From Dictyostelium discoideum (taxonomy: Eukaryota), in assembly GCA_000004695.1 (NCBI GenBank), contig CM000155.2, positions 3,456,001 through 3,520,000 of the forward strand: a stretch of 64,000 nucleotides of DNA, written 5' to 3'. Position 1 is the stretch's first letter. Every line of letters starts with the position of its first letter. This document shows, one piece after another, positions 4,612 to 10,395 of the stretch. The translations under genes were made by a program, and so were the position numbers. The notes beneath the pieces were generated by a model. The model saw nothing but the letters and a program-made list of their open reading frames with translations, was not told the origin of the DNA and ran no database searches.

Positions 4612-7065
4612 ATGACAGGATTTGAAATATTTAAAAAAAAATATCAAGTTATACAAATTTTAAATGAAATTAATAATAATTTAGAAGAAAGGTTAATATC
4701 AATTGCAAAAGATAAATCTGGAAAGGTAATTATTTTTTTAAATTTAAAAATTTTTCTATTAAATCTAATTCTTTTTTTTTATTTTTATTTTTTTTTTTTT
4801 TTTAAAATAAAACTTTGAAAAGTTATGTGTTTTAAAAGAAATTAAATATTTAAATAATAAAAAAAAATTGGAAGAATTTAAAAAAGAAGAGAAAAATGAA
4901 GAGGGAATTCAAAAGAGAATATATCAAAGAAATTTCAATTTAGAATTTAACCATTTAAAAAATTTTTCTCAAATGAATCATACTAGTATAATTAAATATA
5001 TTGAACATATTGAAAGTAAAGATGAATTTGGTTTAGTTGATAGATGTATTTTTGTTACAGAATACTATGAAGATGGTGATTTATCTTCTATTAAAGAGTA
5101 ATTATTATTATTATTATTATTATTATTATTATTATTATTATTATTATTATTATTATTATTATTATTATTATTATTATTATTATTATTATTATTATTATTA
5201 TTATTATTATTATTATTATTATTTATTTGAGAAACACAACTTACTAACAAAATACACTATTTTAATATTTGAAAAAAAAAAAAAAAAAAAAAAAAAAAAA
5301 AAAAAAAAAAAAAAAAAAAAGAATTGAATTTAAAGATATTATAAATTTATTTTTAAAAATGTTAATAAATTTAAAAGAATTTCAAAATGTAATCATTCAT
5401 AGAGATATTAAACCAGAGAATATATTTTTGAGAAAATTTAAAAATAATGATGGTAAAGTTGAATTGGATTGTTATTTAGGTGATTATGGTAGTGCACAAA
5501 CATTATATACTCAAAATAAATCAACATTAATTGGTACAAATCAATATATTGCTCCTGTAAGTTTTAAAATTAGAATTATTTCTATTATTATTATTATTAT
5601 TATTATTATTATTATTATTAACGTAACAATAAATTATTAATTTATTAATGAATTAACTGAACAGGAAGTAATAGAAAAAAAGGGACATACAAATTTAATT
5701 GATATTTATAGTTTAGGTAAAACATTACTTTCTTTAAGTAAAAGAAATACAGGATTTGTTTATAATAGAATCTATTTAAAATTATTTGAAATTATGACAA
5801 ATCCATTTGAAACTAGACCAAATGTTAATCAATTAATAGAATTCATGTGTAGACATCATGAAAATTTGAAATACACTCTATTAGTTAGTGATTTTCAACA
5901 CAGAGATTCAATTAAATGTTTAAACTATTTAAAAGAGAAACTTATTGGAATTTTAGACAATAAAACAAATCCTTTAAAAAAGATTCATATAGATATGGAA
6001 TTTCAAGGTAAAACCTATCATTGTAATGGTGTATTAAGATCAGAATATTTAAGAAATGAATACATTTTAGAAAATTATCCAATAAATAATAATAATAATA
6101 ATAATAATAATAATAATAATAATAATAATAATAATAATAATAATAATAATAATAATAATAATAATAATAATAATAATAATAATAATAATAATAATAATAA
6201 TAATAATAATAATAATAATAATAATAATAATAATAATAATAATAATGAAGGAGAAGTAGTTCAAGTGATTGAGTTGGTTTCAACTGATGAAAAACACTAC
6301 TCTGTACTAGAGGGTCATATCAATTTAAGTGAGTCACCCATTTTAAATTCTTTATCTTTTCATGATTTTAAAGTCATAAGAGGTACAGCTCCTATTATGC
6401 ATTTTAACGATATCAATACTTCCACTACTGGAGAAGAAGAAGAAGAAGAAAAAAAAGACAATCTGAAACGTCAAAATGAAAATAATCAAATAGAACAAGA
6501 AGATAAAGGAGAAAAACACTTAAAAGAAACTTTAAATAATAATAATAATAATAATAATAATAATAATAATAATAATAATAATAATAATAATAATAATAAT
6601 AATAATAGTAATTATAATAGTAATAGAAAATGTTTATTAGTTTTAGTGCCAATGAAAAATCATTCATTTAGATTATATAAAGATATATTAAAAAATGCAG
6701 ATGAAACAACAGTTGAAATTATTCAATTAAAGGCAATCTTTCATTCATTATTAGCTTCATATTTGGTATCATTAACAGGTGTTGATTTTGCACTTCAATT
6801 TCTAATTAGAGGTGATGGTATAAATGTTTACTTTGAACCACCACAACCTTCAGATACCACCACTTCAAATAATGGTGAAATTAAGTTAACAGATTATGGA
6901 TTTAAATTTTTATTCCCATTTAAACATGTTTCAACAGTTTACTCTGAATGCAATTCTACTTATTTCGATATATTTCCACAAAGTATTCCAGTAAAAAACC
7001 CATTAGTAAAAGAAATACAACAATTTTTTAAAGTTTGTATAATTGGATTCATGAAATTTAATTAA
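4612..7065 (+). CDS. Divergent protein kinase-domain protein (HRDIKPEN / DYG / APE present, Gly-loop degenerate) with long N-rich C-terminal region
   Basis: CDS join(4612..4725, 4823..5097, 5322..5556, 5665..7065), all GTAA-type donors and AG acceptors, frame preserved. Exon 3 encodes VIIHRDIKPENIFL...DCYLGDYGSAQ...GTNQYIAP and joins exon 4 EVIEKKGHTNLIDIYSLG (APE motif restored by splicing). Introns 2 and 3 carry (ATT)n microsatellites. C-terminal exon encodes two long poly-Asn tracts from (AAT)n at 6088-6245 and 6538-6605. Confidence 0.75.
6088..6245 (+). repeat. (AAT)n microsatellite, about 52 units, coding poly-Asn in kinase-domain gene
   Basis: Perfect AAT triplet run read directly. Translates as N in the genuine frame and as poly-I/poly-Y in spurious overlapping ORFs (5942-6283, 6067-6264). 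Confidence 0.95.
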
Positions 7066-7155
7066 TTAATTACCACCACTATTTAAAAAATAACTATAAA
7101 CTAATTTACTTTTTTTTTTTTTTTTTTTGGTTTTTTTTTTTTTTTTTTTTAATAG

Positions 7156-10100
7156 GATGAATCTCAAACAAAAATTCCATTCACTACAATATTTCAAAGA
7201 TTAATTTCAATTGTATTGAGAGAGGAATATCAATATAAAAAATACAAAGAGTTGGAATATTATTTTGAAGCATTTAATTCTATCGATCATCACTATCAAC
7301 AACTAAAAATAAATAATGAAAACCTAGTCAAATCAGAATATATAACTAGATTAATAGATTCAAAAGAAATTATAAAAGTTGTAAATCATCTTACATTCAT
7401 GCCAGTTGATGACTATTTCTTTTATGTAGTTCCTCATAATGAAAAGGTAATAATAAATTAAAATAAATTCACTAATTTTTTAAATACTATTTTATTAATA
7501 ACCTAAAATTTAAAAACTAATTAGGTTTATGGAATTGAAGTTTATAAGAATTTTCAAGATATTGATTTCTTTGGACATGCAATAAATATAATTAGATTAT
7601 CATTAGCAATTTTAAATGATCATAGTAAACATTTTAAATTTATTGATGCACATAAGGATATAAATAGTAGTATTTATTATTTTGTTTATGAATTACCTCC
7701 ATCTCTTGCAAGTAATTATAAATCAACATCTGAAATTCAAATCAACAACAAGAACAACAACAACTTCTACAACAACAACAACAACAACAACAACAACAAC
7801 AACAACAACAATAATAATAATAATAATTCTAATGATAAATCTGATAATGAAAACAAATTATTATTTAAACAATTAATTAATCAACATTTTAATAATTGTA
7901 TTGAATTTATTAATAATATTAATACATTTGCTCGTGAAAAAAACCCAATTAATATATTATTATGTAAGTTTTTTTCTTTTTTTTTTTTTTTTTTTTATCA
8001 TTTTGTATATTTATATATATATTAATATAAAAAAAAAAAAAACATATAGATTCAATGCATACAATAATTACAAAAAATGAAATGAATGTATCAAGTCTTT
8101 ATTATTCATATATGGTAAATATTTATTTTTTAAAACAAATAATTTAAATAAAGGAAAAAAATAAAAAAAAAAAGTTACTAATAAAAAAAAAAAAAAAAAA
8201 AAAAAAAAAACCTATTAAAGTTATTTGGTAAAGTTAATCAATGTATAATTGGTTCATTTTATGATATTGGTAAATGGGTTTATGGTGACCAATTTGAAAA
8301 AAAAATTAAAAGTGCAACATTTTTAAAGAATCTTCAATATTTAGTTTGGTATAAAATGAGTATGATATCTAATAATCATCATCAAGTTTATTTTAGTCTT
8401 TCTAATCTTTATAGTATCCTTAATGAAGATGATAAGGATATGATGATTCTAAATTTAGAATCATCACTAAAAATTAATGAAAATAATGAAAATGAAGAAA
8501 GTTTACCTCAAAAATTATTCAAACTTGATGATATTGAATTTGGTGATAATTTTAAATATTCTAAAATTTTAATTGGTGGTATTTGTTATTACATTTTAAA
8601 TATTAAAGAAGGTGATATATTTAAAGAGGATCAATTTGGTTTAGAAAAGAAAATCTTATTATTAGAACTTAAACAATTAGAAAGTGGTAAAAAATATTTA
8701 TGTTTTAGAAAACAATCACATCAAACAAATACTTTAAAAGAATTGAAATTCAATTGTAGAACAATTAATAAAAAAATAAATGATGAAATCATTTTGGAAC
8801 CTTTATTTGTAGTTGAAGATTCAAATGTTACTTTCCATTTCTATGAATATAAATCATCATTTGAAAATATTAAATCAATTGAATCATATAGTAAAGATAA
8901 TAGTACAGATTATAATGGAATAGTTATTATAAGATCATTACTTTATTATATTCAATATTATTTATCAAATTATAAAAATGATGACGATGGTTCTGATGAT
9001 GATAATGACAATGATAATAATAGATCATTAAAATTGGTATTAGTTAATATGAAAGATAATGAATCATTAATTTATTTAGATATTCAATATTTAATATATA
9101 GATTATACGGTGTTGATATTTCTTTAACAAATGAATGGACAAAAATTAATGAATCATTAATAAATGGTACACCATCATTAATTACAAATTTTATTCAAAC
9201 AAATAGAAATAAAATTTTAAATGATTCAATTTGTTTAGAAATTTTATCAAATGAATTAATGATAAAGTTTAAACCAATTGAAATTGAAATTCAAAGAGAG
9301 ATAAACCATGTTACTTCTGTTGTTTCTGTTGTTGATGTTGATGTTAGTGGTAATTCAAGTAAAAAGAAATTTGTTAGAAAAGCAATTGGTTCAATAATTG
9401 ATTTAAAAATTATTGGTAAAAATTATGGTGGTATTGATTTATCAAATCCTCGATCATTAGGAACCTATAATTTAATTGGTGATTCAGTTTTTAGAAATAT
9501 TTCATTTTTTGAAAATAAAAAATTATTTGAAAAATTTGATACAAATGTTAACTTTCAAAAAGAAATTGAATTTGTTAAAAATTATTCAAAATTTTTAAAT
9601 TTTGATATTTCAAATAGAATACCAAGAGAGTATAGTATATTAAAATCAATTAAAGGAATGAATGGTGTTGTTCAAATTGATAGTTGGTATCTTGAAAATG
9701 ATATAATCTATATTTTAATGGATTATTTTGATGGTCAAAATTTATTAGAAGTCTCTCAAGATCTCATCAATGATTTTACTTTATTCTCAATATTAAATCA
9801 ATTATCAAAAATATTATTTGAATTAGAAACAGTTTATTCAATTCATCATCGTGATTTAAAACCTGATAATATATTAATTAAAAATGATTTAACAATATGT
9901 TTAGCTGATTTTGGAATTTCACATTTTTCAAAAGAATTAAAAAATGATCAAGATTTATATTATTCAAAAGATGGAACCCTTGGTTATCAATCCCCAGTAT
10001 GTATAAAATAATATTATTATTATTATTATTTCCCCAAAAGAAAAAATTAAAAAAAAAAAAAAAAAAAAAACTTCCCAAAAAAATTAAATAAACAGGAAAT

Positions 10101-10395
10101 TTATAGTAGTGAATTAAGAGGTAATGGAGATATAAAAAATCAACCTTATAAAATGGATGTATTTGGTTTACGTTGTGTTATGAAGTATTTAATGTCTAAA
10201 TTTAATTCTTCTTCTTCTAAATTAAAAGAATTGGTTGAGAAAATGGGTTTTTTTAATGTGAAGTATTTTTTTTTTTTTTTTTTTTTTTAAAAAAATGTAT
10301 TAACATATTTTTTTTTTATTTTCCTATTAATTTATATATAGTATGATGATCGTATAAGTTTAAAAGAACTAATAGAATGTTTAAATAAATTATAA
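7156..10395 (+). CDS. Second divergent protein-kinase-domain coding unit (kinase domain at C-terminus); possibly 3' part of the same gene as 4612..7065
   Basis: CDS join(7156..7446, 7525..7963, 8050..8114, 8221..9996, 10096..10257, 10342..10395). C-terminal region encodes HHRDLKPDNILIKNDLTICLADFGISHF...GTLGYQSP|EIYSSELRG... (SPE/APE motif recreated across the 9997-10095 intron), then KMDVFGLRCVMKYLM. The first exon (7156-7446) begins at an AG acceptor and has no in-frame Met until its last 15 codons, so it looks like an internal exon. Confidence 0.68.

Follow-up and report, generated by a model that had tools for sequence, protein, structure and literature searches.

The window analysed here is a stretch of 64,000 nucleotides (nt) of Dictyostelium discoideum AX4 chromosome 6 (contig CM000155.2 of assembly GCA_000004695.1, positions 3,456,001 to 3,520,000, forward strand). 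Its segment 4612-10395, on the plus strand, very probably constitutes a single 10-exon gene, which encodes the 1592-amino-acid (aa) dual-domain kinase DDB0231281 and whose fourth intron is located at 7033-7155. An initial annotation of this DNA had recognized two adjacent kinase-domain units at this locus and had proposed that they form one gene joined by an intron. This proposal finds support in the collinearity of paralogous proteins, a common intron position, the ortholog of another strain, insertions and deletions (indels) within the intron, the base composition of the intron and the published residue numbering. The finding is correct and not new, as the single-gene reading and the peculiarities of the kinase motifs have been in the literature since 2006.

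The DNA of the locus is A+T-rich and contains runs of AAT coding for asparagine (Asn), as is typical of Dictyostelium. The gene model was built by hand, by removing canonical GT-AG introns from the window DNA. Read from the ATG at 4612, the first unit without its three introns (4612-4725, 4823-5097, 5322-5556 and 5665-7065) comprises 674 aa and terminates at TAA 7063-7065, exactly where the initial annotation had placed its end. The following segment (7066-7155) is T-rich and ends with TTAATAG, again as described earlier. Directly after the AG at 7154-7155 a second open frame begins in phase 0 (exons 7156-7446, 7525-7963, 8050-8114, 8221-9996, 10096-10257 and 10342-10395), with TAA and TAG codons at 7150-7155 immediately before 7156. 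The long Met-less opening reported for this unit is real: 81 codons are open and the first in-frame Met is codon 82. Given the base composition of the locus, a stop-free run of this length has a chance probability of about 1e-4. The suggested phase-0 donor, AAA|GTTTGT at 7033, is indeed present 30 nt ahead of the stop of the first unit. Joining 7032 to 7156 creates one open frame of 1592 codons, from which nine GT-AG introns have been removed; the fused product had been estimated at about 1750 aa. All coordinates of the initial annotation were right, whereas the eight further introns of the region went unmentioned. Moreover, its term "stop-codon-skipping intron" is overstated, since this appears to be an ordinary spliceosomal intron, which contains in-frame stops if left unspliced, like most introns and like the corresponding intron of a paralog described below (P0001).

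In composition, the segment 7033-7155 (123 nt, 13.8% GC) differs from the exons (17-24% GC) and lies close to the other eight introns of the gene (5-13% GC). Typical Dictyostelium introns have a GC content below 15% and a length of 60-250 nt (Goldberg et al. 2006, PLoS Genet 2:e38, PMC1420674), and the segment, bounded by GT and AG, falls within both ranges. Its splicing would join ...EIQQFFK to DESQTKIPF..., and once intron 4 had been spliced out, the TAA at 7063 would never be read in the mature mRNA.

The matches of the fused model (with Asn runs trimmed) included paralogous proteins of D. discoideum and D. citrinum, 1356-1421 aa in length and including AX4 DDB_G0293292, which aligned with the model over 96-99% of its length with approximately 31% identity (E values from 1e-118 to 1e-143). 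The MAFFT alignment is collinear and free of gaps at the junction, where FFK|DESQTKIPFTTIFQRLISIVL of the window gene faces FAK|ELDKTKLPTVDIILKLIKMI of paralog P0001 and TLN|KLSPNNLQYKSI.I.LISII of paralogs P0003 and P0004 (also given as TLN|KLSPNNLQYKSIFIELISII). Compared with five homologs in the family alignment, the window gene lacks no residue at the junction. The genes of the paralogs are interrupted in the same alignment column. At the P0001 locus (L002), a phase-0 intron (12119-12204, GTAAGT...TATAG) is situated between FAK and ELDK, and reading through it leads to a stop after nine codons. At the P0003 locus (L003), a phase-0 intron (approximately 8017-8081) separates TLN from KLSP and is flanked by ...TTGAAT and AAATTATCT. 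P0001 also has introns at the positions of six more introns of the window gene.

A junction-centred protein search identified the ortholog of the gene from a second D. discoideum strain (locus tags ACTFIR_009298-009300, assembly GCA_054859385.1), which is about 91-94% identical to the window gene. One of the annotated proteins of this strain (P0121) reads across the junction (...VKEIQFFKDESQTKIPF..., FFK|DESQTK) and thus uses the same splice. When the DNA of the two strains is aligned, both splice sites (donor GTTTGT, acceptor AG) are found to be conserved, and indels of 5 nt and 31 nt are located inside 7033-7155. Exon 4, upstream, has no indel other than one of 3 nt, and exon 5 opens with ~100 nt that are identical in the two strains. 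Over the 97 codons of exon 5 following the junction there are one non-synonymous and seven synonymous differences, i.e. a ratio of non-synonymous to synonymous substitution rates (dN/dS) of 0.03. A junction-centred protein search returned no transcript-derived fragment of ~110 aa or more.

These comparisons also bear on the possibility that the locus contains two genes, the first (674 aa) ending at TAA 7063-7065 and the second transcribed from its own promoter within the 90-nt gap and translated from ATG 7399. The unspliced sequence does provide a complete ATG-to-TAA unit of 674 aa, a second unit starting with the Met of codon 82 would have 847 aa, and the annotation pipeline applied to strain ACTFIR divided the locus into three genes. 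However, the divisions made by that pipeline are placed at Asn tracts and lesions and not at 7033-7155, which one ACTFIR protein crosses. The 81 codons preceding the Met, improbable as an open run, have conserved counterparts in the paralogs and evolve under strong purifying selection, while the tail that the first gene would acquire (VCIIGFMKFN*) is not conserved: the 5-nt deletion of ACTFIR throws it out of frame and moves its stop. Furthermore, the paralogs are single proteins spanning both halves, and the published curated model is one dual-domain protein. We therefore consider the existence of two separate genes highly improbable.

Taken together, five independent lines of evidence (the paralog alignment, the common intron site, the strain ortholog, the indels between strains, and the length and composition of the segment) identify 7033-7155 as an intron, and we infer that this mRNA is spliced accordingly in vivo.

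Several observations nevertheless weigh against the single intact gene. Compared with the GTAAGT or GTAATT donors of neighbouring introns, GTTTGT departs further from the canonical form, and two more phase-0 GT sites, at 6991 and 7006, could be joined to 7156. No AX4 protein record for the locus was found in any of the protein homology searches, which returned only the ACTFIR fragments although neighbouring genes were represented; an exact look-up of the 674-aa, 847-aa and 1592-aa models likewise produced no record. The overall dN/dS between the window gene and its ACTFIR ortholog is 0.45, and that of the N-terminal kinase domain 0.77. Finally, the ACTFIR ortholog (L001, 8329-12888) is broken by three lesions: (i) a rearranged start of exon 2, with loss of the segment carrying the beta3 lysine, (ii) an in-frame TAA and a 62-nt deletion in the Asn tract of exon 6, and (iii) a 576-nt deletion (window 9657-10232), which removes the catalytic core of the C-terminal kinase domain and creates a TGA. 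Because of these lesions and the dN/dS of 0.45, the gene may be weakly constrained and perhaps dispensable. The lesions could represent a true loss-of-function allele or errors of assembly in low-complexity DNA. If they are real, this kinase is dispensable and in natural D. discoideum it is variably present or lost.

The two alternative donors, 6991 and 7006, were rejected, since with them the protein would lose 14 or 9 residues, respectively, of paralog-conserved sequence and would no longer agree with the published residue numbering.

Automated gene models are known to mask stops and frameshifts with invented introns, an artefact recognized at 15 Dictyostelium kinase loci (Goldberg et al., PMC1420674). 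This warning, together with the premature stop and the 62-nt and 576-nt deletions in ACTFIR, the overall dN/dS and the lack of a retrieved AX4 protein record, would suit a decaying pseudogene in which 7033-7155 is a bogus intron hiding a disabling stop. The same authors judged such loci by asking if the stretch taken out as an intron codes for homologous sequence that the protein otherwise lacks. In the present case the alignment to the paralogs is complete across the junction, both paralog lineages contain a real intron at the exact site, and the segment has the length and composition of an intron. Moreover, after splicing, the AX4 frame remains open throughout its 1592 codons, and Goldberg et al. 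inspected this gene and listed it among the genes rather than among the 15 pseudogenes. A pseudogene of this kind is scarcely credible.

Another reading retains the single gene and assumes regulated retention of intron 4, so that the spliced transcript would encode the 1592-aa dual kinase and the unspliced one a 674-aa protein with the N-terminal kinase domain only. Such a mechanism could exploit inefficient splicing at the weak GTTTGT donor, and retention leads to a clean stop after 10 extra codons. Yet neither the retained tail nor its stop is conserved between the strains, and an early in-frame stop occurs in the paralog intron too, as chance alone would produce at an A+T content of 86-95%. 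Nonsense-mediated decay would probably eliminate an mRNA that keeps the intron. Regulated retention is improbable.

In their analysis of the Dictyostelium kinome, Goldberg et al. (2006, PMC1420674) described nine proteins with two eukaryotic protein kinase (ePK) domains. Among them is the Dictyostelium-specific family Other/Dicty9, whose two domains belong to the same class and originated from tandem duplication; the family has three members, DDB0231281, DDB0219988 and DDB0230037. In Table S2, the row of DDB0231281 starts with MTGFEIFKKKYQVIQILNEINNNLEERL..., which is the start of the window model, and its motif calls are identical to those of the window gene (CVLK, HRDIKPEN/HRDLKPDN, DYG/DFG and the remark "lacks G52"). 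The first aligned residues in Fig S1 of the same paper are 25 for domain a (EERLISIAKD...) and 1328 for domain b (GKNYGGIDLS...), and in the spliced window model these strings begin at exactly residues 25 and 1328. This numbering can only result if the published model contains intron 4 as proposed here and shares all other introns that precede residue 1328. No difference in gene structure between DDB0231281 and the window gene was detected, the Table S2 sequence being compared upstream of the junction only. A literature search on DDB_G0293292, DDB0231281 and Dicty9 retrieved the 2006 kinome paper only. At the level of sequence, the window gene displays the following features of a Dicty9 member: two ePK domains of the same class, collinear homology to the family, identity to DDB0231281, and domains without a glycine loop that retain HRD and D[FY]G.

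The other two Dicty9 members, DDB0219988 (which is DDB_G0293292, P0004) and DDB0230037 (which corresponds to P0001), are paralogs and not orthologs of the window gene. Together with their orthologs in D. citrinum, D. cf. discoideum and D. purpureum, they have the same layout, in which two kinase domains are separated by about 1000 family-specific aa. They show ~31% full-length identity to the window gene and have several intron positions in common with it, including that of the junction intron. They differ from it in the DFG motifs (DMG/DFS and DLG/DFG) and in their Asn tracts, which are shorter or absent; P0001 has 13 introns as opposed to nine in the window gene. A separate observation concerns DDB0230037, whose 2006 AX4 model contains HRDIKPDG and is noted to "lack N171" (Goldberg et al.). 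Its ortholog in strain ACTFIW (L002, 10510-10604 / 10714) is modelled with an intron at HRDIKP|DN and reads HRDIKPDNILIKSVKLKDG. The old model was probably over-spliced, with N171 probably present.

The predicted product of the window gene would consist of an N-terminal kinase domain (K43, HRD, N163, DYG), approximately 1000 family-specific residues and a C-terminal kinase domain (HRD, N1479, DFG). Kinase domain a (4684-5859, plus strand, residues ~25-273, broken by introns 1-3) and kinase domain b (9370-10392, plus strand, residues ~1313-1592, broken by introns 8-9) match Pfam Pkinase with 87.4 and 80.5 bits, respectively, the cut-off being 31.7 bits. Both matches begin only at profile positions 42-43, which is consistent with the absence of a glycine loop. 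The profiles of the two domains match each other (hhalign probability 99.5%, E value 2.8e-23), and for both the best match among solved structures is NEK1, although a weak one (45-52 bits).

The initial annotation had described domain a as having DYG and lacking a GxGxxG loop, which is true; it also contains HRDIKPEN and APE, as well as a VAIK-type lysine (CVLK, K43). Its description of domain b holds for HRDLKPDN, DFG and SPE, but not for the supposed lack of a clear VAIK lysine, since the family-conserved FVRK (K1316) could serve as the beta3 lysine. The motif [FY][VI][RQ]K (FVRK, YIQK, YIRK) is retained in every family member of the alignment, including that of D. purpureum. Goldberg et al. 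(PMC1420674) assigned this role to EFVK (K1382; window 9568-9579) and flagged the choice as "questionable". Their three choices of the beta3 lysine in the family (EFVK, PYLK and VFLK) fall in different columns of our alignment. As a small refinement, we therefore propose K1316 of FVRK (9370-9381) as a better candidate than K1382. The Glu of PREYSIL, in a segment of domain b that aligns to the NEK1 stretch following beta3, is taken as the alphaC glutamate.

Neither CVLK nor FVRK is preceded by GxGxxG, while the HRD and D[FY]G motifs are kept in both domains. Since K, E, HRD, N and D[FY]G are all present and only the glycine loop is lacking, pseudokinase is not the default reading, and the motifs do not justify the use of that term in the initial annotation. 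From the motifs, both domains are predicted to be catalytically competent. In the published table, both domains of DDB0231281 are scored "aq" (active, qualified; PMC1420674). By analogy with other proteins containing two kinase domains, one of the two may serve to regulate its partner or to prime it.

The region of ~1000 residues between the kinase domains contains Asn tracts and is family-specific. It has no Pfam match, and its hhalign profiles gave a probability of no more than 0.1% against either kinase domain; its two halves, compared with each other, reached 19.7%. AlphaFold2 models of the region are of low confidence. In an exhaustive representative search, its close relatives were found only in the D. 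discoideum group and D. purpureum. Being common to the family and without a detectable relative outside it, the region may adopt a new fold. We also considered degenerate pseudokinase domains within it, hinted at by LVLVPMKNH/LVLVNMKDN and IKLTDYG, and rejected them on account of the lack of Pfam or hhalign support; the DYG of IKLTDYGFKF is not kept in the paralogs. The combined claim that the three lesions inactivate the ACTFIR ortholog and that the middle region perhaps represents a new fold is put forward tentatively, and we regard it as rather doubtful.

The exons and introns of the plus-strand model are distributed as follows over these parts. Exon 1 (4612-4725) starts at ATG 4612 and encodes residues 1-38, with an N-terminus identical to that of the published DDB0231281. 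It is separated by intron 1 (4726-4822, GT..AG, 7.2% GC), which has a counterpart at the same position in P0001, from exon 2 (4823-5097), where CVLK with the beta3 lysine K43 is encoded at 4826-4837. Intron 2 (5098-5321, 5.4% GC) is made up mostly of ~40 ATT repeats, after which comes a poly(A) stretch of ~60 nt. Exon 3 (5322-5556) contains HRDIKPEN (5398-5421), DYG (5482-5490) and the first two codons of APE. Exon 4 (5665-7032) completes kinase domain a, carries two Asn tracts, opens the conserved middle region and ends with ...EIQQFFK; the first tract is an (AAT)n run at 6089-6246 with 53 consecutive Asn, and the second has 24 Asn. It is followed by the phase-0 intron 4 (7033-7155, GTTTGT...TTAATAG, 123 nt, 13.8% GC), whose retention would lead to the stop at TAA 7063-7065. 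Exon 5 (7156-7446) encodes DESQTKIPF...PHNEK in 97 codons, with its first Met at codon 82; exon 6 (7525-7963) has an Asn tract, and exon 7 (8050-8114) is part of the hand-built model. The large exon 8 (8221-9996) carries conserved middle region and most of kinase domain b, including FVRK (9370-9381), PREYSIL with the alphaC Glu (9622-9642), HRDLKPDN (9847-9870) and DFG (9907-9915). Exon 9 (10096-10257) runs from the E of SPE through the C-lobe of kinase domain b, and exon 10 (10342-10395) closes with the stop TAA 10393-10395; for each of these two exons, an intron occurs at the corresponding site in P0001.

Elsewhere in the window, two open reading frames (ORFs) match DDB_G0293922 and DDB_G0293926 of D. 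discoideum AX4 exactly, which places the window on chromosome 6 of this strain. The stop of the kinase gene (10393-10395) lies 17 nt from that of a convergent minus-strand ORF (10413-12122, 569 aa), and the two 3' untranslated regions must therefore overlap. On the other side, the minus strand of 1-3778 carries the 5' portion of a large gene for a polyketide synthase, divergent from the kinase gene, whose ACTFIR ortholog has 3092 aa with KS, AT, KR, ACP and NAD_binding_4 domains. Further downstream, a minus-strand ORF of 927 aa (19961-22744) contains long Asn tracts together with motifs resembling those of reverse transcriptases (GIGQGSLCSPHLC, FIDDYLYVS). Judging by these motifs alone, it may be the C-terminal portion of a gene of the telomerase reverse transcriptase type.

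The result matters little beyond annotation hygiene. It does indicate that a correct gene model can be recovered across an in-frame stop from raw sequence alone, and automated annotation of new Dictyostelium assemblies still breaks this family at Asn tracts.

Two ePK domains on one polypeptide are likewise found in RSK/MSK, JAK and GCN2, and in ZakA and DPYK3/4 of Dictyostelium. The Dicty9 proteins are unlike all of these in that neither of their domains belongs to the respective families and in that the domains are separated by ~1000 aa instead of a short linker. Both Dicty9 domains belong to one Dictyostelium-specific class and probably arose by tandem duplication.

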